Shown in pieces: positions 26,025 to 49,743 of a DNA stretch of 64,000 bases. A program made the translations under genes and the position numbers. The stretch lies in NCBI GenBank assembly GCA_032718475.1, contig JAUCBJ010007175.1, forward strand, positions 60,290-124,289. Direction: 5' to 3'. This DNA comes from Nemertoderma westbladi (taxonomy: Eukaryota > Animalia > Xenacoelomorpha). Under the pieces are notes generated by a model. That model was not told where the DNA came from. It was given only the letters and a program-made list of their open reading frames with translations, and searched no databases. The first letter of the stretch is position 1; every line of letters starts with the position of its first letter.

Positions 26025-26029
26025 TAGTC

Positions 26030-27264
26030 TGTTCGCGCTTTCAGACCTTTGGCAGTTTAACCCGCCAAATTAGGATGTCTTTTAGATAATAAATCACTTT
26101 TAGCCTATGACAAGTATTTGATTCACTACACTAGTCGAAACCAATCTGTGCGCGATCATTCACCCGCTGGATATACCCGGGAGATTGGGTTCGACGGCTT
26201 AATCTTATTGCTATGTAAGCCTAATGTATTATTCGACTGACAGTATTATATAATCTCTGACAATATTATTCACCTTCGGGAAATATTAACAGTTCCTTTA
26301 GGACGTGGCGCTCTATCTATATAAACAGAGTTATGACTTAAACTACTCACAACGATATGGCTTAGTTATAATTCACATATATGGCGCATTCTTTAGGAAA
26401 TGCTTCGTTATCAGTCTCACTCATACACAATGCTGCACAATACTGCACACTAATCTGCCGATCTTCACTGATTTTAGTCACATATAAAAGGAACACGGAC
26501 CGACTCATGTAGGGTCTATCAAATAACATTAGATTCACTTCAAACCACTTTAACATAAGTCACAATCGTTATATATAACCTTTCTCTCTTACCTTCGGTA
26601 TATCAAGAATATTGGGTTTCGGGGTTATTTATCGTTATTCCAAATATAATAATTCATCAACCATATTATGAAGGACCGACAGTAAATAGCAGTATAACAA
26701 TAGAATGTAAACACAGTGTTTGATTAGGTATGGTATGTTATGATTTGAGTTGAGTTGTTATGCAGTTTGCAGTCAGTGTTTGCAGTGAGATAACGGATAT
26801 ATGTCCTTATAATTAAGCCTACTAGTGTTAGGCTAAAAACAGAACAGCACAAAATATTTCCAAGCCGTTCTCTCCTGGCTCAGAACAGAATGTAAACACT
26901 GCACATAAAGCATTACGTGATTTCTAGGAAATTTCTCTACAAGAGCCATAAAAATGCTCTGATTGGCTGACTGAACTGAGAGACGCCGTAGAACAAAGAA
27001 AATCAACACATATGAATATCAGCTGTTAACCGTCGTCATAGTAACTACTGTTCAAGAGTAGCTATCACCTTTTGCGTCACGAATTGCCATAGAATCATCA
27101 ACTATGCCTTCCACAGTACACGTACGGAGGAAATAGCTCTTAGATCCTCTAAAAAACACCAATACAGTAATAATACGGTCTCTTACACTTATTAAATCAA
27201 CTACAGAGTATTTTAATGTAAAAGATAATAAAAATAACGGGGCAATTCAGCAAAGGCTTTTACA
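26030..27264 (-). repeat. 3' LTR of the inner BEL element
   Basis: TGTTCG...TTTACA. Matches 44925-48272 apart from the LINE insert; only one substitution noticed. A purine-rich GGGAGCGG (PPT) precedes it on the - strand at 27265-27272. Confidence 0.95.
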
Positions 27265-27342
27265 CCGCTCCCAGAAAATGGGATTTTCAGTCTATAAAAT
27301 ATAAAAATCACAGTTTCTAAAACCTAAAGATACTCTAAACAG

Positions 27343-30300
27343 TTAGTCTTTCTTACGCGGACGGCGTTTACGCAGTTTCGTGAGGCTAGCAAGAGTCCTT
27401 TTCTCTTTGGGGCGAGCCACTTTACGAGGAGGGCTGTAGCTCCTAGGCGAAGGGTGCAATTCAATTGCATCAGAAGGTGTAGGGTTACGATCGGTATACC
27501 CGCCGGTCGAAGTGCCTGGTTGATTAATATCAACCTCGGGGGAGCGAGGTCTAACGGCCTTTAGGGCGCGTCTCAGGACAGCAGCTCCTACGGGTCCTTG
27601 ACGGGTCGTCTGGACACTAGCAGTGGGTGGACCGTGAGTGTTGAGGAACTTTCTCGGTTTAATGGTTCTCTCCAGCTCGCGTTCTCGGGTTCGATATTCA
27701 TATGGTCGCCGAGATACTTCCTGTAGTTCAGGATGCGAGTTCACAAAGATGTCGCCATACTCGGGGTCCTGACGGATAAAATTGATCAGGTGATATGTGG
27801 TTATATCATTAGGGTTAACGTTTCTAAGGTATTTTCTGACAAACTTGGTGGAAATACACTCACCAACACGCTTCATTAACTCGTAACTTGGTACGCGTGT
27901 TTTCTGTTCAATCGACGCGAAGAGATAAGGATGGAACGCGTAAACTCCTTCGTAAGCTCGTCCAGGGTAATAGCGATGTCGAGATTCGCAATGTAAATCC
28001 GCGTTCGCTTCCCAAGCTCGGATGTATCGCAGGGTGATTATCTCGTCTACACTCTCTAAATCGCGATTAAAGGGACAATTGTAACTTTCATGTCCTTTGA
28101 GTTGACAGTAGTGACATTGAGTCATAAATTGTGGGCAGACGGCAAAGATATGAGAGTTATTAAGTCTGCAATAAGCACAATATATTTCCATCATCGGTTG
28201 TTCGAGGAAATAGGAACAAGGTACGCTCGAGTCTAGAGGGGTGAAGTGGTCTCTCGATGCGCATAATCGACAACGTTTTCGAGAAACGTAGTTGGCGTGT
28301 CGATAATCGTACGCTGTGAGACGTTGTGGACCTTGATACCACTCTATGACATAATCATTGTCACTGCTCCGGGAAGTTGTAGGCTGAATCGCTTCTGATT
28401 CCAAGCACACTGGTTCATCCTCCAGCTGTATAGACGAAGTGGGTGCGTCTGTTTCAGTAAGTGGATCCACTGTCTGTATTTCCACGACAGAATAACCTGT
28501 ACTACTACTACTACTAGGATCGGCATGCTGCATTGCAGCTGCATTTTTAAGAATGCTGTGCCGGCTTAACCTGTAGGTATTCGGGGTCTTTGTATAACAG
28601 ATGAATGTAAGTTCTGTATACAAACGTCTTGAAACACGGCAAATCCAGCGCTACTCAGTTTCTCCGCAGCTGAGTCTCTCAGACTGAGTTTGGTCAGCGC
28701 GCGATCCTTGAACTGACTATCGACGTTACGGAACGGAGTCAGAAAGCGCCGGAAACATTCGAAACGTATGAACTTATTATGTTCGTCTAACTTGGCGAGT
28801 TTAGTTCCAAGTATTAATGGATGAGCGCGTATGGTACGACTGCACACATCGGCTAGCCAACCGGCAAGTGCTGCGTTTTCAAAGATCGTGTATATAGCTA
28901 AGGAAGGGCGAAGTGGAACACTCATAAAGCTATATACGGCACCAGGCGCAGTTAATGGTCCATCAAAATATAAACGAGAGTAATGATCTCCATATACTTG
29001 CTGGTAATTGGTAGGATTTCCAACTTTGAAATTCCATCCATATTCTTGAAAGGCAAGATGTCCGATGGATGTCCGTTGTACCTTAGTAATGTCGCTGGGT
29101 GTATTGGCATACATAGTGCGAAAGAAACCTCGGCCTTCGGCCCAAGGAGCAATCAGCTGAGTATCAACGAAAGGGTATGGAATGTTTTCCATATTCCGGA
29201 AGTCGTTTTGGAGATCTCCATAAACAGCTGAGCCGATTTTTAGGATTCTTTCGTTAAACAACATTTCGAGCACGGGTTGGGGTAACATTGATCCGTCGAT
29301 ACCCATGGCCGGTTTGCGCTCGGTGTCGGTGACGTAACGCTGCGCGAGCTCGAATTGTCCATGTCGAAGTTTCTTTTGTGTCTCCGTAAGGGTTTCAAAA
29401 GAATAATCAATCACGTCGGAACACGCTCGAGTGAATACGTGGGTAGAACCAGCGAGTCCTCGTATATGTATCATTCGCGTAGTTCCTAGTTCTCCCACCG
29501 GAACGCTACCTTCGTTGTCATAAGTAACAACGCCATACATCTCGATAACGTTAAGAGTCTCGTTCCATTCTTTAGTGGCGTTTTCGAGAGTCATTCCCAC
29601 TGGATGCCACAAAGTAGCGCATTCGCTAGCATTGGGTAAATCTCTATACTTTAAGCATTGTGTAGTATAGGTTTCCACATCTCCATATCGTTTTATTCTT
29701 TCTTCCTCGAATAACACGTCAAGATTCCAGTGTACCAATCGAGTTTTAATGAATCCATCAAGATTGTACGGAGGTAATATTTCTTTCTCTATTCTGGAAA
29801 TATTATACGGTTTTCGAAATGAGTTTAGTTTAACCAGCTGATCTAGATGTTTTTGTAGTTGTTCGAGTTCGACGAGGTCGAGAGGATTGATCAATGGTAG
29901 AAACTTCAGACTATGCGTAGGATCTTCTGGTTTTACCATGTAATATTGCTTTAAATTGACGTAATAAGGATGATCCTTAATTCCATAAAATGAGTCCGGC
30001 AAAGGTCTAGCGCGTATGTTAACATCGTGTACCATGCGACGGACAAGATCCGCTCTATTGTCCGGAGGCTCAACAAGTACACCATCGACACGAGCAGCCG
30101 CTATGGGTGGACGTTGTATCATAGGAGCGTCAGCAATGAGCTCGTGAGATCTGAGATCAGTATTAACCGGTTGAGGCTGTACCGTAGCAAAGAGCTTGTC
30201 TTTAAACTGAGGAACCATCGAGGGGTGGAGGATCGTTTTGGAATAGAGATCCGTCACGAGAATTTGAGTTTCTGGTTGGGCTAAAGCAGCTTCTTCCCTC

Positions 30301-31670
30301 TCAGTCAGTTCTATATGTCTCTCCTCGAGCTGATTTTCCTCAGCTTGTTGTTGCAAGCGCTCGTCCAGGAATTCCTGTAAGGAGTAGGTTCGTCCACGTT
30401 CGATGTCCTCCTCTAGATTCTGTATTTCTCTATCGAACTGGGGCAAAGCTAGTTCTTTCACCGCTTGGACTTGTTGTTGCAATTTACGTTTCTCCAAGCA
30501 ATCGTAAGTTCCTTTTCCGATTTTCTGCCGAATAGCGTCCAATGCATTTCGTATCACGCTCTCTTCGACTTCTGTTACAGGTTGTATCGGAGGGAGGCCA
30601 GGACGGTTGTAGGGGTTAAACGGTGATATTAGATGACCGCGTCCTAGTCCAGCGAGGTAAGGTTGGCGAATATCTAACGAACCCACTACCGGAGTGCCAC
30701 CAATCAACTGTTCAGGTAACACTAGATCTTTGAACAGTGAGTATAGCTCGGGAGGATCCGTAATACTATTAGGATCGAGAGTTTGAGGTATCACTTGGGA
30801 ATGAGGAGGTCTGACCGAGTATTCCGGAACTCTGATCATGGGTTTGTTCAATGATCGTTTAAGGCGCGCGACCGTAGGTGATACGTCGAAAAGGTTTCGC
30901 TCGAAACTCCCATAAGTATATCGCGTAAAACTGTGTTTAGCGCAACGTCTCCGCGGATGTTTATGCCTTTCGATCTGCTGGTTAGGTCTAGGGCATTCGT
31001 CACAGTAATACCAAAGACGCACGTCTTGAAGGGGAAACGCGGGTGATCGCTCTCCAGTTTTACAATATTCCTCCATCTGTTCGAAGCTATCTGGAACGAC
31101 AGGGAGTGGTCGATCGGCGGTAAGATACATCATCGTAAAATAGAGCCGTTTGAGTTCCATCATAGGATCTGGATGTATACCTTGAGGATATCGAGTTTCG
31201 AGGTTTTGTTGACTAGCAACATTGAGATAGGTCTCTCTTAGGAATTCTAGATATTCGTTGAAGCTGCTACGTTTATCAGGTTCTTCAACGTCTTCTCTTT
31301 CGAGTTTATTTCGAATAGAGTTCTCGTGTTCTATTCTCGATTTGTCGTTTCGACTCCGCTGGGTATGATATTTAAATAAAACCATTTCCCTTTCGGTGTC
31401 GACATCGTCGGTATCGTGTAAATCAATAGGATGACCAGTAGTCAGGAAGTCCATATACGTACCATTACGATGCGTATAGCGAGCAGTGAATTTTCTATAG
31501 TCCAATTCACGCGTAAGTTGCTCCTGGGACATGGGCGGTTCGATATAACGACCATCGTCCTCCGTAGTAGTTGGATCAGCGTCGCCGCGTATTAAGCTAT
31601 CGACAAACGCTTGTAAAGGTAGAGTATATCTCTCCCTGATACCAAGATCATCTTCTATTAATTCAGTCAT
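27343..31670 (-). CDS. Accessory ORF3 of the inner BEL element: ~1417 aa when reconstructed, with a DEDDy (WRN/Mut-7/RNase D-like) 3'-5' exonuclease-like domain and three zinc knuckles. Disrupted in this copy.
   Basis: ORFs 28566-31670 and 27343-28623 fuse in frame (RIPTG-YSVVEIQ) once 74 bp (LINE tail + TSD) is removed. Motifs VVTYDNEG, LPQPVLEMLFNERILKIGSAVYGD, PFVDTQLIA and PLRPSLAIYTIFE. Knuckles include CHYCQLKGHESYNC. Confidence 0.75.
28502..28566 (-). mobile_element. 65-bp 3'-terminal fragment of the RTE-like LINE with a (TAG)n tail
   Basis: Identical to 45407-45460 (CTAGGATCGGCATGC...CCGGCTTA) plus a CTA-repeat tail. TSD TAACCTGTA at 28493-28501 and 28567-28575. Confidence 0.92.
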
Positions 31671-33315
31671 ATCTGCTATACGAGTTCACCAATATTATAA
31701 TGAGTTTATATATTTATTAGGCGAGCGGGCGTCGCTGCCTACTTCTCCCTTGCCCCCGGACAGTGTGATTCTCAGCGCCGATGTACCGCTGTCGCTGTAC
31801 TTTCGCCAACGACGTAGCCGTACAACGACAACGATAACCGGCACAAGTCACTCCACTGTCCGTCCCAAAGGCTTAGATGTACTTCAGGTTTCCTTGGAGA
31901 GTTAGGTTACTTTCACGATTGCGACTAGCTACTGTAAACACACTTTAGCAGTAACATTCACCTATAAACTCACAAATACCACACAACTGGTCACAACTAC
32001 GCACATTCGGGCCATTTGTCCGTTAGTCAATGCCTTCCAGAATGTCACTGTATTATTATGTATCCTTGGATACTAGCAGTGCGCTATTTATTCCCTATGC
32101 TATTCAATGGGACAAGCTTTCTATTGTTCTTTTAACTCAATTCTAATTCTAGCGTGGTTGTTGCTATGGTGACATTATGCAAAGCTAGCGGTAGAATTAG
32201 GGTAATTCCAATGCATACAGATCTGGGATGTTATTTAATAGTAATTCTTTAATGGTCAATGTCCTGTTTTATATATGGCTTTATGAATTTTATCGGCTAT
32301 TGACTATGTTTGGGAGACTTTCGCACATTCATACGCATAATAAGATAATCTCCGCTCCCTTGATCTATTAATTAATGGAATTTTGGGAATGTTATAAATT
32401 GCGCAAAATGGCAATTTATTAAATTCATTAAAAGGCATGAATTTAAATTTATTCCCTGAAATTTTATTATTTGATAATTAAATTGACATGTTTTGATTCT
32501 AGAACATGTCTGGGGACACAAGATCCTTAATTCTATGAAAATTGTCTTTTTAAGAATATCGGTAAATGCTACGATGTCTTAATTGACTAGAATTGTTGAA
32601 GGATCTGAATTTTACAGATTTTGATTTATTAGATTTGCAAATATTAAATAATTAATATTTGAGATGGGCACCGATTTATTCCAGAACTTGTCTGGGGACG
32701 TTAACCACTGATTCTAGAATTTGTCTTTCAAGTATATCGGTGGGTGCCGCGATATCTTAATCGACTAGAATTACAGATGGTCAAAAGGTTTAACAGATTT
32801 ATTTGCGTTTCACGCTACTGTTAGAAGGACATCACGCTACTATATGTATTATTTAATATACGGTATGAGAGCAATATCGCACGAAGCAATGTCAGTGTGA
32901 AGAGGCAAGTCGTTTCCAAGGTCTACCCAGAGCTTGGTTTAGCCGAGACACGAGGATCTGAACTTTGCATTCCTAATACTCTGCCTACCAATAATACTTG
33001 AATATAGTAGTGGCTTTATTGTACTTTAATAAGTACGGACATTTCATCTTACTGTAGTTACGTATTTATAATATAATACGGACAGTAAGGAAAGAGAAAA
33101 ACACTTGTTTCTCACCGTCGCACTAAATATAATATAAGTAATTACGTACGCAATAAACACGAACATATTGCACTATTCTACTAAATAATCGCTAAATAAT
33201 ATTCTACTAAATTAAATAAAACGATTATAATAAAATTACATAGTAATACATACATAAATATAAAAATAATAAAATAATATAAAATAATAGAGTCACACGC
33301 CCACTCCGAACGATA

Positions 33316-36300
33316 TTAAGTTGGGGAGTCCCTAGATGTGGGTTGGATTAGGGAAGTGGTCGTGGGAAGAGTTTCTTGCCTTCCATAGTTTCCGGAGAGC
33401 TCTCTGTCTCTTTCCAGTAAACATAAACGACCCACTGGGCGATTGAGCTGTTGAGTCTCAAAGACTATCCCTGGTTTCTTAAAGTTACGCCGCATGACGA
33501 CGAGTTCTACTGATCGCACCAAACCATCGCTCGAGATATGAGTCTCGATGATACGTCCTGTTTGCCATCGCTTACGTGGGAGATCGGGGTCCACAATAAG
33601 CACCATGTCTCCAGCGCTGACGTTTTCCTGCTGCGCAAACCACTTAGTTCGAAGTTGTAGAGTGGGCAGGTAATGTTTCTCGAAATGGTCAGCGAAACGA
33701 CGGGATAGCAACTGCATAAGTTGCCAGGTTCGACGGCAGTACTCGTCTCCGTCTGTGATCTCCGATCGTGGGAGCATGGCTACGGGTTTCTTCAGTAGAA
33801 AGTGCGCGGGTGTTAGCGCTTCCAGGGAATCAGGACTTGAAGAGACTGGCATAAGCGGTCTTTCGTTGAGGTAGGCGGCGATTTCCTCCATTAACGTCCG
33901 CAATAGTTCGTCGGTGAGATAAGCGCGACAAGGCACAATAAAGTGGAACGCAGTCTTCACGCTCCTAATCAATCTCTCCCAACTTCCTCCCCACCAAGGG
34001 GCGTCGGCGGCGTTGAAGGTCCAGCTAGACGCTGTTATCCTTAGCTGATCGTCCACCTGTCTTTTGTTCCAGTCCTTTACGTAAGCTTGAATTTCGTTGT
34101 TGGCGCCAATGAAGTTCGTTCCCTTATCCGATCTCATCGTGTTACTGGTTCCGAAGCGAGCGATCTGTCGTCGTAAACTCAACACGAAGCTGTTGGTGGA
34201 TAGATCGTTTACCATATCGAGATGGATAGCTCTACAAGTCATACAAACGAAGATGACACACCATCTCTTGACTATAGTCCGGGCACGATATACTTCAATA
34301 GGGCCAAATAAATCCACACCGGTATTAGTAAAGGGTGGTTCATAGAAGCTTACTCTTTCCCTAGGTAATTCTGCCTCTCGCTGTGTCAAAGGCCTACTGA
34401 ATGCTTTCCTACAGGGTATGCAGTTCCTAAGGACTTGGTTCAGAGCCCTACGGGGTTTATAAAAATAGTAGCGAGTTCGAATTTCGCTCAGAACTCGTTC
34501 TCTTCCAGCATGGTACAGTTTGCTATGAACATCTACAATCATCTTGATTTGTATGTCAAGATTTCTAATGAGTATGGGAAATTTAGTGTCAAAGGATAAT
34601 GGGGCGTTGGTGAGCCTGCCTCCAACACGTATTAACCCATCTATCATGGTACTAGAGAAGCGATCCCTTAAGCGCATCTGCGGATTTCTTAACAACAGGA
34701 AATACTTATCGGGATCCTCATAGCATTGTAGGAGTCTCAGCATCTGTTTGTTGGTTTCATCATGCTCCTGGTAACTGATCTTCTCCTTTAGAAACCTGTC
34801 GGATACCTTGTATTGGGGAAGATCTTTAACAACATGGACTCGTGCAGATGTTGATGGAGCATCATCACTATGGGTCTTTGTCCCGGAGTAACGATGATGA
34901 AAACATCGTTTTAAATAGGTGACGGCTTTACAGAGCCGATTCCAGGAGCTGTAGTGACGTATCGCTCTCTGCAAGAGGGGTGAGAGTCCTTGCGCGATAT
35001 CTGGTATTCCAGATTTCCAATCCTTGTCACGGATTTCCAAGACTTCTTTAGTCGTGGCGGTGGGTTTCGGATCCAAAGCATCCTCTCCGGAAGTAAATAA
35101 TACAGATAGATCAACCGCAGGTTTAAACAACTTCGATTTACTCGCTCGAGTTTTGGGTTTAACTTTCTCCGCTCCCTTGGCCTGTCTGATCTCTGCTGTT
35201 GTGAGATGGGGAGGCCATTCTTCTTCTTCTTTGTAGAGAAAGTCGGGTCCACCTAACCATTCGGGAGTATTTACCAATTCCTTTGGAGTCGCTCCTCGGG
35301 AAGCGATGTCTGCTGGATTAATCGTTCCGGGGCAATGTCTCCATTGGTCCATCGTCGTGCGACTAAGTATGATGGCTACCCTGTTGGTAACGAAGACGCT
35401 GAACTGACAGACTTCATTGGTTATATACTCTAACACGAGTAAAGCGTCGGTCCAATAGACAGTTTTCTCTAATGGATAGTCAATCTGTTCGGTTACATTC
35501 CGGCCGATGGCTGTAGCGTATAGAGCCGCTTTTAACTCCGCTCGAGGAACTTTCAACTTGTTGTTGATTAATGCCTTAGAAGTAACCAAGGCGACTTTGA
35601 TTCCATCCGGAGTTTCCACTCTTAGATAGGCTACTATACCTATTCCCATATCGCTGGCGTCTCCAAACACATGGAGTTGATAGGAATACGTAGGGAGAAC
35701 ATGACCAAAATATGAACGGGAAATTATAAAATCCTCGATAGCCGGCAGAGAATCTTCCCATTTCATCCACTTCTTCAATAATTCTCCCTTAAGTGGATCG
35801 TCCCATGAGTGGTTTTCAAGCCACATTTGTTGTACCAAACTACGAGCAATCAAGATAACTGGGCTAATAAATCCCAATGGATCGAAATAAGTGCTCAGTA
35901 TACTTAAGCAAATCCGTTTGGTTCGAACTGGATTATCTCGCTGTTTTAGCTGGAAAAACAGGATATCTCGCTCTGTGTCCCATTTCAAGCCGAGTGTCTT
36001 GGTTTCTGGCAGATCATCTTTGATCAAATCTAGATCTTTCGCCCCTCGATCTTCCGCAGGGATCGACTCCAGAAACTCACGGGAGTTGCTGGTGAATTTC
36101 GTTAATCGAAACCCACCTCTTTTTAAGCACTCTACCGTTCCTTTAGCGACCTCAATGGCTTCCTCAACTGATGGAAGGGACTTCAGATTGTCGTCCATGT
36201 ATATGTCTCGCTTGATGTTGTCGATCACTTCCTTAGAGAAGGCCTCTCGGTTGTCCTCTGCAGTGGTACGCACTACCGAACAGGCGTTGGAAGGGCTTGA

Positions 36301-36900
36301 GATTATCCCAAAGGCCTGGATGGTCATCCAGTACTCCACCGGTTTCTGGTTGAGGTCTCCTTCGGGCCACCACAGAAATCGTAGACTATCTCGATCCCTA
36401 TCTAACACCTTGACTTGTAAGAACATGCCTTCTATATCGGAGGCGAAAGCAATCGAATATTGTCTCAATCTTAAAAGAATTCCCAACAAAGATTGAAGCA
36501 AGTTGGGTCCGGGTAACAATTCAGAGTTAAGGGATTGACCCATGTAAAGAGCGGAGCCATCAAACACTACTCTCACTTCATGTGGCTTACCGGGTTTAGG
36601 AACGTAATGGTGAGTTAAGTAATACGTTCTTTCAGTCACAGGTGTTTCTTCCGGTACTCTCTCCGCGTATCCCTTACTAATAAATTTCTCCAGCTGTGTT
36701 TGATACATTGCTTTAGCTGAAGAATTAGCCGTAAGGCGTCGATGGAGTTGCGCGATTCTTTTTTCCGCCAAGGGTCTGTTATTGATGAACTTCGGTTCTC
36801 TCTTGCGGAAAGGTAGACCGACTTCATACCTACCTTGATCTTTGAGGAAACGTGTAGTTGTCTCTTGGATCTGCTTGGCCCTTTCCTCTTCCACTGACAA
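33316..36900 (-). CDS. pol: BEL/Pao Pol: reverse transcriptase, RNase H, integrase
   Basis: RVVFDGS, GPNLL, YMDD, LGLKWD, LHVFGDAS, NPADIASRG, HHCC (HSKLYH...CIPC), and integrase DDE (GVDLFGP / SDKGTNF / WERLIRSVK). Confidence 0.97.
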   Translation of the reverse strand: MSVEEERAKQIQETTTRFLKDQGRYEVGLPFRKREPKFINNRPLAEKRIAQLHRRLTANSSAKAMYQTQLEKFISKGYAERVPEETPVTERTYYLTHHYVPKPGKPHEVRVVFDGSALYMGQSLNSELLPGPNLLQSLLGILLRLRQYSIAFASDIEGMFLQVKVLDRDRDSLRFLWWPEGDLNQKPVEYWMTIQAFGIISSPSNACSVVRTTAEDNREAFSKEVIDNIKRDIYMDDNLKSLPSVEEAIEVAKGTVECLKRGGFRLTKFTSNSREFLESIPAEDRGAKDLDLIKDDLPETKTLGLKWDTERDILFFQLKQRDNPVRTKRICLSILSTYFDPLGFISPVILIARSLVQQMWLENHSWDDPLKGELLKKWMKWEDSLPAIEDFIISRSYFGHVLPTYSYQLHVFGDASDMGIGIVAYLRVETPDGIKVALVTSKALINNKLKVPRAELKAALYATAIGRNVTEQIDYPLEKTVYWTDALLVLEYITNEVCQFSVFVTNRVAIILSRTTMDQWRHCPGTINPADIASRGATPKELVNTPEWLGGPDFLYKEEEEWPPHLTTAEIRQAKGAEKVKPKTRASKSKLFKPAVDLSVLFTSGEDALDPKPTATTKEVLEIRDKDWKSGIPDIAQGLSPLLQRAIRHYSSWNRLCKAVTYLKRCFHHRYSGTKTHSDDAPSTSARVHVVKDLPQYKVSDRFLKEKISYQEHDETNKQMLRLLQCYEDPDKYFLLLRNPQMRLRDRFSSTMIDGLIRVGGRLTNAPLSFDTKFPILIRNLDIQIKMIVDVHSKLYHAGRERVLSEIRTRYYFYKPRRALNQVLRNCIPCRKAFSRPLTQREAELPRERVSFYEPPFTNTGVDLFGPIEVYRARTIVKRWCVIFVCMTCRAIHLDMVNDLSTNSFVLSLRRQIARFGTSNTMRSDKGTNFIGANNEIQAYVKDWNKRQVDDQLRITASSWTFNAADAPWWGGSWERLIRSVKTAFHFIVPCRAYLTDELLRTLMEEIAAYLNERPLMPVSSSPDSLEALTPAHFLLKKPVAMLPRSEITDGDEYCRRTWQLMQLLSRRFADHFEKHYLPTLQLRTKWFAQQENVSAGDMVLIVDPDLPRKRWQTGRIIETHISSDGLVRSVELVVMRRNFKKPGIVFETQQLNRPVGRLCLLERDRELSGNYGRQETLPTTTSLIQPTSRDSPT

Positions 36901-36923
36901 GGCTTTATCGTAGGAATTGGGCT

Positions 36924-39299
36924 CTACCGCCTCTTGCGTAAAGAATCGTACGGCGCATCTCGAGTCTTGGCATTACAACGCTCAATGACGTCATTTAACT
37001 CGTCGTTATAAGCTTCTCGTTCAGTTGGATAAAGAAGTTGACATAAGTTCACTTGGTTTTGCCAAGCCTCGTTTTCCTTAAGGAGGTCGATGGTATTCTC
37101 CTCATCAAAAAGCTGGTGCACGTCGTCGTTATCTGAGGAGTATGGGGTTCCCTCAGTTAAATCGTCTCCCTCACTAGTATCATCTTCCCATTCACTCACC
37201 TGGTAGACGCGCTCTTGCTCTTGCTGGGAAGGGCCAGTAAAGTACCAACCTACTCTAGTTCTTACCGCATAGGTCTGTAGTGGCTGCGGTTGAGCAGGCC
37301 GTTTCTCCAATGTCTCCAGCGCCTCATGCGCGTTTTGGCCGAGGAGTATTTGCACTCCAGGATAATCAGTCTGGAATCGAGGTATCTTAAGATGTTGGAT
37401 GCTCTCATCCTCGTCCCAATTATAAAGGTCTGCTTGAGTAGTAGCGAAGTTCTTTATAGCCACCAATTTCACTGACCTTATGCTATGTTCTCCTAGTTCG
37501 TCTTGTGGGGTGGACAACGCGCCTACATAATAATCAGCTGTTACTGTAGATTTCCAAACTTGTATAATGCCTGACATATTTAGCTTGGTTCGGAACTTAG
37601 GTTGTCCAGCGAAGATGTCTTCGGCTAGTTCTTTATCAATGAATGTTCCTGTGCTGCCGGAGTCCAGGAGGGCGTTCACTATATAGCTTTTCTGAGGTCC
37701 ATGGACCCGTAACTGGACTACAGGAAATTCTCGGATTCCTACATTGGAAGTTGGTGCTTTCCACGATGGTTGTCGCTCAGAAGTAGTTAGAGTGAAGTCG
37801 CTGTCTGTATCTTTTTCATATGTGAGTGCTCGATACACTGCGGTATTTATCATGTAACAGGATTCGTTTTCGTCGGAGAACTCGTCCGTATAGAATCCTT
37901 CCATCTCAGATTGATCAGTGTCGTTCACATCACTGAATTGGACATGTAGTTCGGAATCACTTACCTGATTAGGACTATTTCGATCGAATTCAGCGTGCAA
38001 CAAGATATGATGTTTCGCACCACACTTTGCACACCTTATGTCTGAGTAACAGGTTCGCCGTTGATGTCCTTGTCTGAGGCAATTATAACACAACCGCTTG
38101 TCCCACATGACTTCACGTCTCTCAGTTAATGATTTCTTTAGAAGTTCATCACACATATTCAAGCGATGGGTCCCATCACATAGCGCACATTTTGGTTTGA
38201 TGTTACTCGCCTTAATCTGAGTCACATTGTGCACACTCACCTTTTCTTCGGGCTTTCTCACCTGAATTCTCTTGGGAGACGTAGGAGGAGTTTTTCTTAC
38301 CTGTTCTCTCCTGTCATTTGTTCGAGACTTGAATTTACTTACCTGATCTTTAGGCATTTTATTTACGTAATAAGATCTCTCAGTGTCCTTCCCGCTATCT
38401 TCTCCTTGAGAAGTCTGGTTTTCGCCGTCGTCTGTATAACACACTGGTGTTACCTTTCTCCTAGAGACGGGTTTTTCACTTACCTTGTTTTCCGGTGTCT
38501 TCTCTCTGGACAGTTTCAGGAGCTGTAATTTCACTTCTCCATCTAGGAATGACATGAGATCAGCCATGGTAGGGTCTCGTCGTTGTTGTTCCATCATATA
38601 TAACACTTTCTTATCCCAGCGTGTACCTACTCCACCCTTCGGTAAAGTAGAAGCCACTGCTCTAATAACCATAGTGTTCTGATACTCATGAGACTTACCT
38701 AGCCAATCTAATTGTCTGCAGATCTCCTGGATCTCATCGGAAAACTCGATAATCCCGCTGCTAATAAACTTTCGGGGCGCTACCAACTTTGCATACAAAT
38801 ACCCAGCGATGTTATTCCTATTACCATACCTGATGTTTAGTGTATCCCAAACTTGTCTTAATCCGTCTGGATGTCCAATAAACTTTAACGCCATTAACTT
38901 GGGAGATCCTTCCAAGCACTCGATGAGGTATCTAAGTTTTTCTCCATTAGATAGTACAGAGTTCTGTATATTATCTTTGTAATATTCATTAAAGGGTAAC
39001 CATTTCATCTCATCTCCATTGAACTTGACGATCTCTCCCACCTTTACCGCTTGCCGGGCTTCGGTTCTAGCCATTTGACGCGTAAAACTTTCTTTGGCCA
39101 TCGTATTATTTAATATCGAGTTATCGGTATATAAATTTCTTAGATTATGATCAGTTCTATAGGGAATGTCATTATCAACAGGTCTATAATTACCCTTAAT
39201 AGGGTTCACTATAGGAGTTTCTACTTCGCTAGCAGTATATATGCGTGTAGGCTCCACACCTTGCGCATGAGATACTTCAGACCTAACAGGTTGACACAT
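36924..39299 (-). CDS. gag: BEL/Pao Gag plus aspartic protease
   Basis: KFNGD..W..F capsid-type motif and EKLRYL. Three knuckles (CALCDGTHRLNMC, CYNCLRQGHQRRTC, CAKCGAKHHILLH). Protease motif ALLDSGS. Pol follows in the -1 frame. Confidence 0.93.
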   Translation of the reverse strand: MCQPVRSEVSHAQGVEPTRIYTASEVETPIVNPIKGNYRPVDNDIPYRTDHNLRNLYTDNSILNNTMAKESFTRQMARTEARQAVKVGEIVKFNGDEMKWLPFNEYYKDNIQNSVLSNGEKLRYLIECLEGSPKLMALKFIGHPDGLRQVWDTLNIRYGNRNNIAGYLYAKLVAPRKFISSGIIEFSDEIQEICRQLDWLGKSHEYQNTMVIRAVASTLPKGGVGTRWDKKVLYMMEQQRRDPTMADLMSFLDGEVKLQLLKLSREKTPENKVSEKPVSRRKVTPVCYTDDGENQTSQGEDSGKDTERSYYVNKMPKDQVSKFKSRTNDRREQVRKTPPTSPKRIQVRKPEEKVSVHNVTQIKASNIKPKCALCDGTHRLNMCDELLKKSLTERREVMWDKRLCYNCLRQGHQRRTCYSDIRCAKCGAKHHILLHAEFDRNSPNQVSDSELHVQFSDVNDTDQSEMEGFYTDEFSDENESCYMINTAVYRALTYEKDTDSDFTLTTSERQPSWKAPTSNVGIREFPVVQLRVHGPQKSYIVNALLDSGSTGTFIDKELAEDIFAGQPKFRTKLNMSGIIQVWKSTVTADYYVGALSTPQDELGEHSIRSVKLVAIKNFATTQADLYNWDEDESIQHLKIPRFQTDYPGVQILLGQNAHEALETLEKRPAQPQPLQTYAVRTRVGWYFTGPSQQEQERVYQVSEWEDDTSEGDDLTEGTPYSSDNDDVHQLFDEENTIDLLKENEAWQNQVNLCQLLYPTEREAYNDELNDVIERCNAKTRDAPYDSLRKRR

Positions 39300-40532
39300 T
39301 GTTACCGAGGGTGGTGGTATACCCCTTTGAGTATTTACTAATTTCGCTTACGTCCTTCTGGGCTCCTCCCCGAGGCGCACCCACGAGGCGGACGCTTTTC
39401 CACTTCCCTTGGGGCCAGTCCGACTCCGTTTTTATCAGACCGGGCCGGAGGGTAGCCCGATGCTTCCTGGGTTCAATTTTCAATCCCCCGATCACACCGG
39501 CACAGCTCGTCGTGTGTAGCCGAACGGCGACTCAAAGTTCGCCTACTGTCAACTTACTGTGGCCTGACTGTACATTGAGCCAACTCAGAGAGTCAACCGG
39601 CGGGTGGACCAGTCGATAGCGATCGAGCATCAAGGTCGCCCTTGAGCCAAACCGACGGTCTTGTCCCATGTGGGCTTGCGCTACCCAACATGGAAGGAAT
39701 ATTGACCGTTTTCACCCGCCTCGCCGGCAGTATTGAGGGGAAGTCGGTTCCGCCAACAATACTGACTAGCTTAAAAGCTAAGAACAAGTCACCACTTACC
39801 AGTCACTGTACACGTGTACTCAATAGATGCTCACGAAATCAAGTACACAATGGTAAACACAAAATTGGACACATACCATGCACACACAGAAGACATAATC
39901 GGGAAAGACAAAATCGGTGACAAAATCAGAGGGGACAAAATTGTATCGACTAATAAAAGAGCCGAGAGTACCTTATTTTGCCGTCAGGGCAAAATAACTT
40001 TGTGTGCACAAAGTATGCTGGGGCGCAGTAAAGATATGGTCCTACTAATAACCGGCGGCGACTGAACCAACCGGCAAGGTTTCCCACACTCACTCGCAGT
40101 GGCCATACACGCACTCACGTATACCACGTACACACACAAACCACAGATTCCAGAGTATCATTCACTCGGACCACACTACAACACTAACCCCTCCTTGCAG
40201 CCGATATTCCGGGTGCCACCTCCATTCCAATAGTAGTACCAACAGAATCATCAGAAACCTGTCCATTCCGATGCAACACCTCCATTCCAATAGTGCTACC
40301 CTGGGAAAAGACACGTTTTGGCAACCGATCGGAGACAGTAAAGAGTCTGGTCAACTCATACATACCAAACATAGACCTACCACATAGACCACATAAACCA
40401 CAGATCACACTAAGCCACCACCCCTACCGTGTACAGGACTGGCAGTACGGCAACAGGCCGACTAGACGGTACCACGGCACCATGTTAATTCATGGTTCGC
40501 GAGACACGAGGGCCTTCAGTAACTCCCCTGCA

Positions 40533-42635
40533 CTATATAGAGTATTTAACGTGCCCCCAGACCCTCACGAGTCCGCCGCCGCCTGTTCGTGACACCCCTA
40601 TAGAGACCTCACCTCTTTGGGTATCGCGTTCTAGCGCGATACTTTGCTGCACTTCTTGCAACTTTAGCCTACTTTCCCTTACTGTGCCCTTGAATTGCTG
40701 GACAGTCTCCTGCATCTGCCCGAGCAGGAGATCCATCCCCCGCCGTCTCTCGTCCACCCATTCGACCGCCGAAGCGGGAGTCGCCAACGTTGTAGCGGGC
40801 GGACGAGGGACCACGGGCGACAAATCAGGAATATTTCGCTCGGGATCCAGGACCTGAACTGTCTCCTGGGCAGTTCTACTGGGCACAGGTAGCTTAGTGC
40901 TATGTAGAGGGAATTTAGAGTTAGCTTCAGGGAGCACAGGTGTGTCTATCACCGAAGGGGTGATTTCAAAAACAGGCCTAATTATTTCAGGCTCATCTAC
41001 TATAGTAGGGAGTCTTTCTATTTTAATTATTTGGTCTGTGGGTTCTGTACTACCTAAGTTGGTGTTATTTAGTTGCCTTCTAACAGCTGGAGGCAAATCA
41101 GGCAATTTCTGACGGTGGAATGTTCTTTTACGTCTGCTTAGACGAGATCTATTTCCTTTGCCTTCAGTATCGGTGGTATCGCCTTCCTCAGATGATGTAT
41201 ATCCCTGTCTTTTGGGAGTAGATCGATTCATCATCTGCATATTACTAGCTGTTAACTGTTTATTTATGCAGTCTTGATTCTCCTGAATATTTTCCAATTC
41301 TAATTGGGTGGTTTCTTCAGCCGCTTTCCGTTCTGCTTCTGCCACTGCCTCTGCCGCCTTTCTTTCCGCTTTTGCCGCTGCCATTGCCGCCTTTCTTTCT
41401 GCTTCTGCCGCTTTTGCCTCTGCCGCTGCCTCTGCTTCTGCAGCTACCACTGCTGCTTTCTTTCTGTCTTCTATACGTTTTTTCTTTACTTGTTCTTCTT
41501 GGACTCGTGTCAGGCGGAGTTGTTCATCAAATTTAGCCTGATTCGCAGCCCTCATTTCCACATCGATGGCATCCAACACACGCTGAGTTCCTTCGCTATT
41601 AGGGCTAAGTCCATCTAACCTTCTCCTCAACTCGTCATCACCTAAAAAACGTTGATAGTCTGACAGATAGATGTCAATGGCATCCCTCTTATGCGGTTTC
41701 TCTGCCGTCGCTTCACTTTCCACTTGGGAAAAAGTAGCGTCTGTTGATTCTCCATGGGTTGAGCGCTCCTCCAGCTGAGCTTTCCACTGAGCTGTTCCTT
41801 GAACCTGGCGACTCACCCGTTGAAACCAAGTCTTTACGGCAACTTGCAACGACGTGTCTTGTCTTCTTTTAGAAGCCTCTTCAAAGGCTGATAATATTAG
41901 CCTGATTCGCAGAATTCTTTCTCTAACTTGATAGAGCAGTTGTCCCTGCTCTTGAGGTCCTTGAGGTTGTTGTAACAGTTGTTTTTCTACTCGCTCCATA
42001 GAGCTGAAGAATCCCTGTGCGTATCCGGCTGCGGACCTCTTCCACACAGCTGGATCGATGGTTTCCTTGGCTACTCCCATCCGGTGTATGTCTTCCCAGG
42101 CAGCTTCTGATAAATCAAACGGGAGTCCGGGTCCGAGGAAGTTCCATTGCGACTCGACCATGGACTTCAGTTCTTCCCTTGTGTATCCCGCATAACTATC
42201 TTTAGTTGAGCGCTTACTTCTCGCCCAATCGATCTGGTGTTCTTCCACAGCGATCAATAACCTAGTGAGTACGGCTGCAGGAAGGATGAGAAGGGGATCC
42301 GAATAAACCGCATCCGTCATCCTTGCTCCGCGCTCGGGTGTCAGTTCTACAGTATCTTCACTACTGGAGCTGTCGGGCCACTGAGAAATAATTTCTTGGC
42401 TCACGGGTTGTTGCTGTTCCGCTGCTTCTTGGTCCCGCTTGACCTGAGCTCGAGTGCCTATGATAGACCTACGATGTTGGACCAGCCTAGGTTCTGTTAT
42501 TACTACAGGAGGGATGACCTTCCTCACAGTGGGAGGTGAACTGAACTTACGACTAGACGGTTCTACGCCTCTATCTGAGTCGCAGATAGTTACATCTAAT
42601 AAACTGTCTGACAGGTTCTGCTTAGTATCAGACAT
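40533..42635 (-). CDS. Upstream ORF0 of the inner element, 700 aa, coiled-coil/low-complexity, function unknown
   Basis: Long ATG-initiated ORF on the element's sense strand, with an AEAK/AERK-rich helical tract and no recognisable catalytic motif. Confidence 0.7.
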   Translation of the reverse strand: MSDTKQNLSDSLLDVTICDSDRGVEPSSRKFSSPPTVRKVIPPVVITEPRLVQHRRSIIGTRAQVKRDQEAAEQQQPVSQEIISQWPDSSSSEDTVELTPERGARMTDAVYSDPLLILPAAVLTRLLIAVEEHQIDWARSKRSTKDSYAGYTREELKSMVESQWNFLGPGLPFDLSEAAWEDIHRMGVAKETIDPAVWKRSAAGYAQGFFSSMERVEKQLLQQPQGPQEQGQLLYQVRERILRIRLILSAFEEASKRRQDTSLQVAVKTWFQRVSRQVQGTAQWKAQLEERSTHGESTDATFSQVESEATAEKPHKRDAIDIYLSDYQRFLGDDELRRRLDGLSPNSEGTQRVLDAIDVEMRAANQAKFDEQLRLTRVQEEQVKKKRIEDRKKAAVVAAEAEAAAEAKAAEAERKAAMAAAKAERKAAEAVAEAERKAAEETTQLELENIQENQDCINKQLTASNMQMMNRSTPKRQGYTSSEEGDTTDTEGKGNRSRLSRRKRTFHRQKLPDLPPAVRRQLNNTNLGSTEPTDQIIKIERLPTIVDEPEIIRPVFEITPSVIDTPVLPEANSKFPLHSTKLPVPSRTAQETVQVLDPERNIPDLSPVVPRPPATTLATPASAVEWVDERRRGMDLLLGQMQETVQQFKGTVRESRLKLQEVQQSIALERDTQRGEVSIGVSRTGGGGLVRVWGHVKYSI

Positions 42636-44078
42636 GTTTATGTGTACAGTTGAATGTCTACTGCTGTATTACAGTCTGAGCAAGTCTAGTAACTCAGTAT
42701 TAACTGCTAGCCTAGTAATTAATTACCTATACTGCTACTCAGTGTAGCGTGATATATATATTATATTAGAATACCGGTATGCTTATAGTATATATAACTA
42801 TATAAGTATTATTACAGACTAGGTTTATCACAGAATACCGGTATAATTTTAGCACAAATATATATAAATATATAATAGGCCTATCGGGAATACCGGTATA
42901 CAGCTTACAGTTTGTAGTATATATAATTCTGGACTAGAATTAATTACAAGTACCGGTATAATTTCAGCCTAAATTTATAGAAATAAAGATAATAGGCCTA
43001 TCGTAAATACCGGTATGCAGTTTACACTTATAGTGTATATATATAAGTATAATTACAAACTAGAATTAATTACAGAATACCGGTATGATTTCAACCTAAA
43101 ATTTATAGAAATAAATATAATAAGCCTATTGTAAATACCGGTATATCAATTATTTTAAATAACTGAATTTCTGAATTTTAAGGGTTACTTGGTTACCTTA
43201 ACTTACTTTATTGCCGTTATTTAAGCAGTAGTCCAACTGATATTGAGACCTAATTGTTGTATGGCAGGCCTACTATTTATAAATCGTTTGAGTTGATTTA
43301 TAATATATATATACCAGTTTAATGGGTTTTGTCAATGTTGAAATAAATGTTATTATTTCTGGGGAGTAATCACTACACAAAGCGGTGCGCTTTCAGTGAA
43401 GTGTTACTTATAGGACACTAAAACAAATAATGCTAATTTACCTAAGTTACTTAATACTACAAATTACGTACAATTCGGGTGAGATTACAATCTCTAAATA
43501 AACACAAAAATTTACAAAAACACAAAATACGAATTTTCAGGGTAATTTTACAAGATGTCTACAAACCAGCCTAACAAAGGGTTAGAATCTGGTTATTACA
43601 ACGGACAGGGTACTACGGTATTTGAAAATAATAAGTAGTAGTAAATACACTGCGTTGTCCAGATAGGAAAATACCACCGCCTGACGACCTATAGCCGTAT
43701 CGCTATAGGTACTACTTTATGTATCACGGAGTGTTCCTACCTAGAAGTTAATAGAGCTAATCGAACGTGCCTATCAACCACTTTACAACACAAATATAAT
43801 GCCTACACTAATTACTTTCGGAAAGCACTGTACACTAAACCCTAAATTAGGTACGAGTACTTGTACAACAGATAATCAGTAGTTAAATATACTTGAACAG
43901 CTAAAAGAACCACGGCATCTGCTGGAGTGACCGATGCACAAAATCATGGGGAATGAATGTTGCGAATAATCGCATAAACTCTGAATAATAAATATTACGC
44001 TACACGTACAAACCACTCAAACAAAATGCAGACCAAATACTGACAGACTACCATCAAGCCGAAACAAACTACGGTATA

Positions 44079-44560
44079 TGCAGACTCCGAAATGATTAGG
44101 TAGTATGCGTTCTAACCCAGTAGTACGACTTATTCTTTAGTTGGGGGTTTACCTTACAGCAATGGCTGCCCCTACTTCCTAACCGTTCTTTATCGGACAG
44201 ATGCTTTACACACACCGAAATCCGTTCAGACCTAATAACAGCCAGACAACTATCCAGCCTACAAATTATCTAAATAAATATTATACGCTACCTGTACAGA
44301 CTACACAAACAAAGTACAGACTAAACAATGGCAGAGTACTCTCAAGCCTAAATAAACTACAGGACATGCAGACTACGAAATGATTAGGTAGTATGCGTTC
44401 TAACCCAGTAGTACGACTTATTCTTTAGTTGGGGGTTTACCTTACAGCAATGGCTGCCCCTACTTCCTAACCGTTCTTTATCGGACAAGTGATCTACACA
44501 CACTGCAATCCGTTCAGACTTAACAGCAATCAGACAACAGCTCAGCCTACAAATTGTCTG
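44079..44560. repeat. Tandem duplication (period ~290 bp) in the 5' leader of the inner element
   Basis: The block GAAATGATTAGG...TTTATCGGACA (~110 bp) is identical at ~44089 and ~44377, with diverged flanks. Confidence 0.9.
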
Positions 44561-44912
44561 TACAATATGATCAGGCTTACACGCCTTCTGTTCAATACTG
44601 GCCTACAAATAAATAAAACTGACAGAAATAAGTAAGCTCCAAAAGAAACAAGGGGTGTACAGTCCCTAATCTCTTAAACAGCCTACCGGTATACCACAAT
44701 CAAATCGAATAATACTAATGTACTTATACGGGAAGTACCGGTTAGGACAGTTAGGCCTACGGACCTACAGAAGTACCTGTTCTGGCAGTTGGACCTACGG
44801 ACCTACGGCAGTACCGGTTCTGGCAGTTGGGCCTACTGACCTACAGATGTACCGTTCAGGTTTACCGGTTGACCGGTACTTTCAACTTTATTGCTTACTG
44901 CAATAAAGAAGC

Positions 44913-44924
44913 TATATCCGTTAT
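44913..44924 (-). promoter_or_regulatory. Non-tRNA primer-binding site of the inner element (ATAACGGATATA), complementary to its own LTR
   Basis: Abuts the 5' LTR and lacks TGG. Exact reverse complement of LTR segment 47798-47809 (= 26790-26801). Confidence 0.7.
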
Positions 44925-45406
44925 TGTTCGCGCTTTCAGACCTTTGGCAGTTTAACCCGCCAAATTAGGATGTCTTTTAGATAATAAATCACTTTTAGCC
45001 TATGACAAGTATTTGATTCACTACACTAGTCGAAACCAATCTGTGCGCGATCATTCACCCGCTGGATATACCCGGGAGATTGGGTTCGACGGCTTAATCT
45101 TATTGCTATGTAAGCCTAATGTATTATTCGACTGACAGTATTATATAATCTCTGACAATATTATTCACCTTCGGGAAATATTAACAGTTCCTTTAGGACG
45201 TGGCGCTCTATCTATATAAACAGAGTTATGACTTAAACTACTCACAACGATATGGCTTAGTTATAATTCACATATATGGCGCATTCTTTAGGAAATGCTT
45301 CGTTATCAGTCTCACTCATACACAATGCTGCACAATACTGCACACTAATCTGCCGATCTTCACTGATTTTAGTCACATATAAAAGGAACACGGACCGACT
45401 CATGTA

Positions 45407-47507: not shown

Positions 47508-49743
47508 CCGACTCATGTAGGGTCTATCAAATAACATTAGATTCACTTCAAACCACTTTAACATAAGTCACAATCGTTATATATAACCTTTCTCTCTTAC
47601 CTTCGGTATATCAAGAATATTGGGTTTCGGGGTTATTTATCGTTATTCCAAATATAATAATTCATCAACCATATTATGAAGGACCGACAGTAAATAGCAG
47701 TATAACAATAGAATGTAAACACAGTGTTTGATTAGGTATGGTATGTTATGATTTGAGTTGAGTTGTTATGCAGTTTGCAGTCAGTGTTTGCAGTGAGATA
47801 ACGGATATATGTCCTTATAATTAAGCCTACTAGTGTTAGGCTAAAAACAGAACAGCACAAAATATTTCCAAGCCGTTCTCTCCTGGCTCAGAACAGAATG
47901 TAAACACTGCACATAAAGCATTACGTGATTTCTAGGAAATTTCTCTACAAGAGCCATAAAAATGCTCTGATTGGCTGACTGAACTGAGAGACGCCGTAGA
48001 ACAAAGAAAATCAACACGTATGAATATCAGCTGTTAACCGTCGTCATAGTAACTACTGTTCAAGAGTAGCTATCACCTTTTGCGTCACGAATTGCCATAG
48101 AATCATCAACTATGCCTTCCACAGTACACGTACGGAGGAAATAGCTCTTAGATCCTCTAAAAAACACCAATACAGTAATAATACGGTCTCTTACACTTAT
48201 TAAATCAACTACAGAGTATTTTAATGTAAAAGATAATAAAAATAACGGGGCAATTCAGCAAAGGCTTTTACATAGTCCTTCACGTATCGCGCGTAGGTTT
48301 ATATGAAATAAATTGGAGATGAGCTGTTGCAACTGTAATTAAAGGTGTAATATTATGGGTTTGTTCAGAAGGGTTTATATGTACCGATTTAGTGTTTCGA
48401 TTGCCTAGACTCGGCCTACTGGGTATATTGGGATTGTGTTTATTTTTGGTGTTATTTTCTTTCTGTCCCTGCCACGGTGTGGCCCTGCTACCAGCTAGCT
48501 GTGGACTAGCAGTCCCCTGTATGGCCGCGTGTGGTAGCGACTGTCCGCACGACCTGTTCTCGTCCAGGGAGTTCGATGTTCCTGCTCCTATTGGGGTATA
48601 TTGTCGATATTGTGATGGGGGAATGTCACCCTGTCCCCCCCCGGCAGGTATGTTTGGTACTGGGGTTGATGTTAATATATTGGGGCCCATACATCTATCT
48701 CCAATAACTCTCCCCTCCCCTGGATATATGTTATGTCCCTGTGTATTATAGTCATGCTGCTGTACCGATATAGGCCTACCCACTTCCTGCCTACCTACCG
48801 GTATGTACTCCGCGGCTTCCGGGTTTAATCCCGTTGTTCGCGCTACCCTATCGCCTACTCTACCTCTCCCAGCATGGCCTATAATAGTATGTGCAGTAAG
48901 GCCTACAGTATGTCCTGCAGTCTGCATGTGCCCTTTTGAACCGAAGTTTAATCTTCTCGAATCTCCCCGCGACTACCGCACTCTCGATCGGCAGCTATAT
49001 CCCGTCGGGAAGCTTCTCTTCGATCCCCTCTCCTGTTCTCGACTTTGTATTGGTACGTCCTGTACCCCTCTCTTGGCGTGCGGTGCGTTTCTCAGGGGCG
49101 ACGGCAATCTCCCGAAGTTCGACCCCACTGACTCCCTGACTCCATCTCTACTATCGACGGTCCGTTATCCGTCCTCGCACTCCTATCGTTCGTGGCGACA
49201 CTTTTTCTACTATCTCCTCTTCTTCTCTTTTCAGTGCAGTATTCCGGCTCGTGAGATCTCTCGTCGACCTCCCGGTTAAACTCCATTGTTCTTCTTCCCT
49301 CTTCTAATCGGGCTCGACGCTTCGTCTGCCCTCTCGCGACGTCAACCTGCCTCTCTCTGCTCGATCGCACGCCAATGGGGATACTCGCAATCCCCCTATT
49401 ATTCTCCATCGCCGGGTGTTGCGGTTTACCTAATTCGGCCCGCGCATTATCCGCCGAAGCCTGTGGGACACTCTCTGCCCCCCCCCCCCTCTCTCTACTA
49501 ATCTCTCACGGTGGGGTGTCCGTAGCCCCCCCCCCCCCCCCACCCGCCACTTATAACTTCACTATCTCTTACTACACTTCTGCGTCCCTCTTGTCGGACA
49601 TTCTCTACCTCCCCCCTCTCGCCACTAATCTTCCGTGGTGGGGCGCCCGTAGCCCCCCCCCACCCGCTACTTCTAACTTCACTACCTCCTACTACACCTC
49701 TACACCCCTCTTGTGGGGCATTCTCTCCCCCCCTCTCTCACCA

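Follow-up and report, generated by a model that had tools for sequence, protein, structure and literature searches.

A selected gene with a predicted RNase D-like nuclease domain and three zinc knuckles in a BEL/Pao retrotransposon of Nemertoderma westbladi

What is encoded by the long gene in the env position of a retrotransposon from Nemertoderma westbladi (Xenacoelomorpha), and what could it do for the element? The gene, here called ORF3 (open reading frame 3), lies between pol and the 3′ long terminal repeat (LTR) of a BEL/Pao element. The element is located in the window, i.e., the whole stretch of 64,000 nucleotides that was analyzed (assembly GCA_032718475.1, contig JAUCBJ010007175.1, positions 60,290–124,289 of the forward strand), to which all coordinates refer. 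A sequence-only reading of the window had assigned to ORF3 a DEDDy exonuclease with zinc knuckles, possibly directed against small-RNA silencing. The answer that we favor, tentatively and just short of even confidence, is that ORF3 is a selected accessory gene whose product, likely an RNase D-type 3′–5′ exoribonuclease with three likely RNA-binding knuckles, trims the 3′ ends of the element's own RNA.

In this copy, the gene is distributed over two frames:

28566..31670 (open frame to 31685), minus strand: ORF3 upstream frame, 1034 amino acids
27343..28500 (open frame to 28650), minus strand: ORF3 downstream frame, 385 amino acids, with three Cys/His knuckles at 28272–28075
28493..28575, minus strand: 3′-tail insertion of a long interspersed nuclear element (LINE) with a 9-nt target duplication, by which the frame is shifted in this copy

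As the sequence-only reading had claimed, the two frames are a single gene that was broken by a LINE tail in this copy. A 9-nt direct duplication marks the junction (copies at 28575 and 28501, 74 nt apart), and the insert consists of 57 nt that match the 3′ end of a LINE (45405–45461) with 100% identity, followed by a (TAG)n tail; its length of 74 nt fits the offset between the two frames. Furthermore, among the other copies, which were seen as short contigs of four runs, the contigs of three runs (X1, X3, and X5) join 28492 to 28567 without the 74 nt. Arithmetic from the coordinates gives a reconstructed, intronless gene of 1417 codons. An ordinary intron was considered for the insert and rejected, on account of its identity to the LINE tail, the target duplication, and the absence of a pyrimidine tract. 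One register of the insert (28497–28570, minus strand) reads GT..AG, with AGGT within the target duplication and weak splice signals, and rare splicing may remove it.

The upstream frame comprises approximately 650 residues with no assigned function, including a Glu/Gln-rich stretch at 400–470, and then the nuclease-like domain. A Cys/His cluster in its N-terminal part (CDECP...H-x-H...C..H, 31004–30935, minus strand) is a possible further zinc site. In the downstream frame, the knuckles start at 28272, 28179, and 28116 and are followed by a basic, proline-rich tail; the first is spaced CX2CX4HX9C and the second CX2CX5HX4C, and only the third is canonical (CX2CX4HX4C). A PDB sequence search with this frame returned nothing significant. 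CCHC knuckles bind RNA, and those of ORF3, judged by their sequence, are likely to do so as well. The product does not look like an envelope, which agrees with the sequence-only reading: no membrane anchor or signal peptide was evident in 19-residue Kyte–Doolittle profiles (maxima 1.19 and 0.59), which were used in place of a dedicated predictor, the N-terminus is acidic, and no fusion-protein family was matched in Pfam. A retroviral-type envelope was rejected on these grounds.

ORF3 is not confined to this copy, as contigs of all four runs cover its nuclease region. An 841-nt segment of that region was matched by 2226, 1101, 12, and 38 contigs of the respective runs, with identities from <90% to >99%, and no small indels were listed in it for any of the four. 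Of the 40 best-supported differences (of 182), 35 are silent, whereas 12.2 would be expected to be so for the same base changes (P = 1e-14); the corresponding dN/dS is 0.06, a rough value because each difference was scored on its own against this copy and the contigs are a mixture of copies and alleles. Among eight differences shown for ORF3 as a whole, all six in the upstream frame are silent and both in the downstream frame change a residue. The nuclease region is therefore under strong purifying selection.

The predicted domain and its candidate metal ligands are located as follows:

28850..29560, minus strand: RNase D-like DEDDy domain, with candidate metal ligands D718 (29519), E720 (29513), D819 (29216), and E931 (28880), together with Y927 (28892)

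The motifs on which the sequence-only reading had relied, VVTYDNEG (29531–29508), ILKIGSAVYGD (29246–29214), and YTIFE (28892–28878), were all located, as were the three knuckles. The gaps between the ligands are 99 residues (E720–D819) and 112 residues (D819–E931). Single-sequence searches of curated collections gave little: Pfam yielded no match in the nuclease frame, PDB sequence searches nothing significant for the nuclease region, and PHROGs only weak matches (exonuclease phrog_1674, E = 0.31). In the ESM Atlas, the first matches were giant-virus PF01612 clusters (0.92–0.93), with the family present on 28–51% of their members, and the best match among 18,950 NCBIfam models was RNase D (E = 0.004), below the curated cut-offs.

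Only one homologue of the domain was found. P0004, a 648-amino-acid protein from a 9.4-kb ENA contig, was the sole homologue in a search of the 50% library, and it aligns with the window domain at 28–30% identity (E = 1.3e-5). It carries D62, E64, D130, Y229, and E233, i.e., the same four acids and the tyrosine, so that the acidic residues noted in the sequence-only reading are conserved in the single relative available. Moreover, P0004 contains the nuclease-like domain in the same Y-x3-E variant, a linker, and three knuckles within a single ORF and matches both halves of ORF3. Its knuckles match retroviral nucleocapsids (E = 1e-4) and, weakly, Air2 (E = 0.06). P0004 lacks the 650-residue N-terminal part of ORF3 and is not known to lie in a retrotransposon. 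Further homologue searches returned P0004 itself only; the nuclease domain had no match among proteins of 568–1810 amino acids, no homologue in viral contigs, metagenome contigs, or phages, and one chance match in plasmids.

When a profile of only these two sequences (the window domain and P0004) was run blindly against 61 bacterial genomes at E ≤ 1, it returned 24 matches, of which 20, including the ten best, fell inside independently mapped PF01612 domains. For comparison with hhalign, 60 reference domains were grouped by similarity. The RNase D profile (12 sequences) was matched with a probability of 88.7% (E = 2.5e-6, score 46–47), whereas none of 60 column shuffles scored above 23 and the reversed control scored 11, and the other groups reached 21% (stand-alone WRN-like), 3.2% (Pol I), and 1% (short RNase D-like). 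ORF3 might conceivably be a passenger, i.e., a gene taken from the host or a frame that arose by chance, useless to the element, or its domain might lie outside the DEDDy group, as the lack of significant Pfam and PDB matches for the domain would allow. However, the gene is intronless, stands between pol and the 3′ LTR, and is strongly selected across copies, and three kinds of search indicate the same clan. The selection and blind-search results largely refute this reading, which we consider very improbable.

The individual motifs contribute unequally. The ExoII block was the top-scoring site in both the window protein and P0004 and was reached by 1 and 0 of 100 shuffles, respectively, in a single-motif test for which some ExoII reference blocks had been mis-extracted by the pattern. 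The ExoI D-x-E (D718, E720) is common to P0004 and was aligned with the RNase D ExoI by hhalign. For ExoIII, scoring with the RNase D matrix put the site Y927-x3-E931 first of 235 in P0004 and second of 267 in the window protein; it ranked first jointly with three of the four reference groups, at low scores and with Pol I one residue out of register. We place ExoIII here because P0004 has W-x-K-P-L-x3-Q-x2-Y-x3-E at that site. Compared with the RNase D/Rrp6/WRN/EXD/Mut-7 enzymes (PF01612, TIGR01388), the domain resembles them in a candidate ExoI D-x-E after a hydrophobic strand, an ExoII K-x7-D followed by a D-T-Q block, and a candidate ExoIII P-L-x6-Y-x3-acid, all in the same order. It differs in its Glu as the last ligand, in insertions between the motifs, and in scores below the curated cut-offs, and ORF3 has no detected HRDC domain and carries CCHC-type knuckles downstream.

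The same peculiarities can be read differently. If the fold was kept while catalysis became weak or was lost, ORF3 would resemble EXD1 or Maelstrom in serving as a scaffold that binds RNA. The replacement of the ExoIII Asp by Glu and the insertions that widen the motif spacing to 99 and 112 residues are in line with this, and a true ExoIII at the Q-x2-Y of residue 893 would have no acid after it. On the other hand, the four acids and the tyrosine are identical in P0004 at just 28–30% identity, and the only listed difference that touches a candidate ligand codon, that of D718, is silent; a scaffold with weak or no activity seems to us quite improbable.

Several observations weigh against the explanation given at the outset, in which an active nuclease trims element RNA. 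The family signal comes almost entirely from the ExoII block; ExoI alone does not rise above shuffles and ranks third in the window protein, and ExoIII alone does not rise above shuffles either, is missed by a pooled matrix, and is displaced, in the short RNase D-like group, by a site without an acid that lies 34 residues closer to the N-terminus. Where the strict pattern is Y-x3-D, the fourth ligand is Glu, and our literature search gave no paper on an Asp-to-Glu change at this position. The sequence-only reading had anticipated a DnaQ-like fold: the sequence-profile kinship to RNase D bears this out, and the structural part does not, as AlphaFold models had a pLDDT of only 31.8 (one sequence) and 27.4 (two sequences) and give no support for the fold. 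This explanation assigns no role to the approximately 650 N-terminal residues, the present results are compatible with either an RNA or a DNA substrate, and contig joints at 27487–30309 and 28371–31296 represent copies without the nuclease and knuckles, which could be helped in trans. Other contig joints (33445–35162, 27264–33878, and 41714–42594) suggest internally deleted derivatives, some of them short of the nuclease or of part of pol.

The agreement of the searches, together with the four acids and the tyrosine shared with P0004, supports kinship to the DEDDy nucleases well and makes an active enzyme likely. From its sequence, the domain very probably belongs to the DEDDy/RNase D family, as the sequence-only reading had proposed, and it is probably catalytically active.

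The host element has the following parts:

26030..48272, minus strand: whole BEL/Pao LTR retrotransposon, 22,243 bp, or 20,130 bp minus the LINE piece in the 5′ LTR
26030..27264, minus strand: 3′ LTR, 1235 bp, with a single mismatch against the 5′ LTR
44925..48272, minus strand: 5′ LTR, interrupted by a 2.1-kb 5′-truncated LINE
about 45395–47507, minus strand: LINE piece inside the 5′ LTR, with an open reverse transcriptase (RT) frame (45440–47512) and a 12-bp duplication
40533..42635, minus strand: frame of 700 codons without a significant Pfam match, in the reading frame of gag
39343..40622, no strand: 1.28-kb segment closed in all six frames and skipped by contigs of three of the four runs
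36924..39347, minus strand: gag–protease frame, with DUF1759, three BEL-type knuckles, and an aspartic protease motif
33316..36972, minus strand: pol frame, with RT (YMDD), the Pao RNase H region (PF05380), integrase zinc finger and core, and DUF5641

Self-comparison of the window revealed the LTR pair, in which 1 of 1235 bases differs and the ends are TG...CA. The element is flanked on both sides by a 5-bp target duplication (GACTA), and the purine-rich tract GGGAGCGG immediately precedes the 3′ LTR. The element was assigned to BEL/Pao, in accordance with the sequence-only reading, because of DUF1759 and the protease motif in the gag frame and Peptidase_A17, the integrase zinc finger, and DUF5641 in the pol frame (36972–33316); the E-values for DUF1759, PF05380, and DUF5641 were 8e-12, 6e-36, and 8e-20. 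The order protease, RT, RNase H, integrase and the three Gag knuckles are those of this superfamily. The element is young, and its family is multi-copy and diverse. The 5′-truncated LINE is present in the 5′ LTR alone, not in the 3′ LTR, and the 74-nt scar in ORF3 stems from this LINE family as well, so that this copy was struck twice.

Contig joints at 39343–40622 and 39329–40624 indicate that the intervening approximately 1278 nt are absent in other copies. The 700-codon frame is therefore likely the N-terminal part of Gag in those copies, and the Gag of the family probably has about 1,480 residues, with an Ala/Glu/Lys-rich coiled stretch. The pol frame overlaps the gag frame in a different reading frame, a change that may be either programmed or a mutation peculiar to this copy; it did not appear in the 12 indels, of 202, that were listed for the contigs. 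Between pol and ORF3 lies an A+T-rich spacer of 1.6 kb (31700–33315) with a 130-nt imperfect repeat (32493–32621 and 32675–32800); AG stands right before the ORF3 ATG, and expression from an own promoter or through splicing are both conceivable. At the insertion site, 25461–26069 (minus strand) holds a frame with weak zinc-knuckle similarity, perhaps from an older retroelement. The flanking regions include a 19-kb array of a 30-bp unit (1912–21220) and, at about 53000–62000, another long stretch whose composition is strongly skewed and probably repetitive.

At approximately 20 kb, the element exceeds the 4–10 kb given for the family in the ICTV profile, which also names an 18-nt tRNA-Arg or tRNA-Gly primer site (PMC8742986). 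This size could be connected with ORF3 if the product were a DNA 3′–5′ exonuclease that proofreads for the RT or trims cDNA ends, thereby aiding the copying of a 19-kb RNA. ExoN serves large nidoviruses in proofreading, WRN and the Pol I proofreading domain are among the DEDDy enzymes, and 3 of the 20 PF01612 matches of the blind search lie in Pol I-sized frames. The element is also about twice the size typical of the family (PMC8742986), but such a size is not unique, since an automated survey lists BEL/Pao elements with a median length of 7.4 kb and lengths of up to 22.8 kb (PMC3118150, supplement 9). In addition, hhalign favors RNase D (88.7%) over stand-alone WRN-like (21%) and Pol I (3.2%) domains, and the copies are diverse. 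A DNA-directed role is doubtful and would surprise us.

A second feature of the element, absent from the sequence-only reading and new in this analysis, bears on the handling of its RNA:

44913..44924, minus strand: primer-site position, 12 bases abutting the LTR end and exactly complementary to an LTR segment
26790..26801, minus strand: candidate self-primer LTR segment, LTR positions 464–475, also present at 47809–47798 in the 5′ LTR

No TGG follows the 5′ LTR, and hence there is no 18-nt tRNA primer site there, although a tRNA fragment might serve as primer; the window contains no tRNA genes. The 12-base complementarity has P = 0.0004 under a first-order null, and none of 2189 other 12-mers of the leader complements the LTR. 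In the predicted fold of the LTR and leader, the 12 pairs form at probabilities of 0.75–1.0, and the 3′ end of the LTR segment lies beside the LTR end, as a primer requires. TATAA occurs just 10 nt ahead of the LTR segment, and an initiator-like TCAGTT is found at LTR position 286. By its sequence and pairing, the LTR segment is a candidate self-primer. Self-priming has been published for the Tf1/sushi, Tj1, Tcn1, and TAR elements (in the accessible parts of PMC4600332, PMC6317226, and PMC5006619), which likewise have no tRNA site and carry bases after the 5′ LTR that complement an intra-LTR segment in priming geometry. Those are gypsy or copia elements and are primed by the RNA 5′ end, whereas here the primer could come from either RNA end. 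No report of self-priming in BEL/Pao was found in a literature search that covered neither older subscription journals nor Repbase.

The element's own RNA is the simplest target of ORF3, because a soluble nuclease with knuckles has been retained by selection inside an element; we hold this with confidence a little below the halfway mark. Enzymes of the RNase D type shorten single-stranded 3′ ends until they meet structure. An RNase D-like ORF3 nuclease would, in the same manner, degrade single-stranded 3′ ends and halt at a duplex, its zinc knuckles would keep it on the element RNA, and the trimming would mature or tidy the RNA ends required for reverse transcription. In the boldest form of this proposal, trimming would expose a paired 3′-OH at the primer site: the LTR segment would pair with the tRNA-less site, and the exonuclease would remove the protruding 3′ tail as far as the duplex, so that a 3′-OH remained from which synthesis could be primed. 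With an RNA start downstream of the LTR segment, that segment would be confined to the region of the RNA 3′ end, and digestion up to the duplex would create the primer; with an RNA start at the segment itself, trimming could complete a Tf1-like cut. Such a self-made primer is a long shot in our judgment, although, if true, it would give a DEDDy nuclease carried by a retrotransposon its first defined role and would differ as a priming route from the Tf1 RNase H cut. Processing of the 3′ ends of element RNA has been named as a possible role of the DEDDy ORF3s of rotifers (accessible part of PMC5408684).

The sequence-only reading had pointed instead to small-RNA silencing. In that case, ORF3 would counter host defense: as an active nuclease or as a decoy, it would destroy the precursors of host piRNAs or siRNAs or trim them wrongly, in the manner of a rogue Nibbler, Mut-7, or EXD1. 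Host relatives of the fold act in small-RNA pathways (mut-7, EXD1, and Maelstrom, according to the accessible part of PMC5408684), and the ESM Atlas lists an EXD1-like cluster for P0004, at merely 0.77. The family is multi-copy, diverse, and young, and the long N-terminal part offers a possible binding region for host factors. However, the kinship seen is to RNase D in general, and mature piRNAs are 3′-methylated and PIWI-bound and are thus shielded from 3′ trimming. Because the primer site is self-complementary and tRNA-less, a role in handling the element's own RNA is at least as well indicated as one against silencing. By analogy with the host enzymes, a counter-defense role is conceivable and, on balance, unlikely, and trimming of the element's own RNA remains the explanation that we prefer.

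How far does ORF3 extend what is known of such genes? For nematode Cer elements, an RNase D-like domain may have been mentioned in a paper of 2000. The sequence-only reading had mentioned DEDDy ORFs in rotifer elements and in nematode Cer1. The former are in print, in the rotifer Juno and Vesta LTR retrotransposons and in Terminons (accessible part of PMC5408684), and are repeated in the accessible parts of two reviews (PMC6431247 and PMC5718144); the latter were not confirmed, as "Cer1" is absent from the accessible part of PMC5408684 and "nuclease" from that of PMC3315495. DnaQ-like domains have been called well-known accessory domains of LTR elements in an opinion paper (PMC6338049, in its accessible part). 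The rotifer ORF3s resemble the gene described here in being RNase D-like DEDDy genes that follow pol in the env place, without membrane segments, and with an altered acidic motif and predicted activity. They differ, as compared by description only, in belonging to gypsy-like or Penelope-like elements rather than BEL/Pao, in their motif (DEED versus D-E-D-E here), in showing no clear departure from neutrality (PMC5408684, accessible part), whereas selection is strong here, and in that the present domain is part of a 1417-codon gene with three knuckles.

Among BEL/Pao elements, those with an env-like third gene (Belpaoviridae; PMC8742986 and the accessible part of PMC13524379) share the three-knuckle Gag, the protease–RT–RNase H–integrase order, the third gene before the 3′ LTR, and LTRs of 1.2 kb, but their third gene encodes a fusion protein, in contrast to the nuclease-like soluble protein found here. 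The present element, at about 20 kb and without a tRNA site, also departs from the 4–10 kb and 18-nt tRNA site typical of the family. No exonuclease is mentioned in the accessible parts of PMC13524379, PMC3118150, PMC3315495, and PMC2774666, and the literature search, outside which lay older subscription papers and Repbase reports, found no exonuclease gene in BEL/Pao.

What is new is thus a DEDDy nuclease cargo in BEL/Pao, a superfamily for which no such report was found, together with a tRNA-less, self-complementary primer site. The DEDDy cargo in print so far comes from rotifer gypsy-like and Penelope-like elements, with neither a function nor a sign of selection. A selected DEDDy gene in BEL/Pao means that this cargo recurs across LTR superfamilies and benefits the element. 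Because the predicted nuclease domain lies whole within one open frame, its role, whether in RNA finishing, against small RNAs, or in proofreading, is open to a simple assay, for which the self-complementary primer site offers one sharp, testable candidate substrate.

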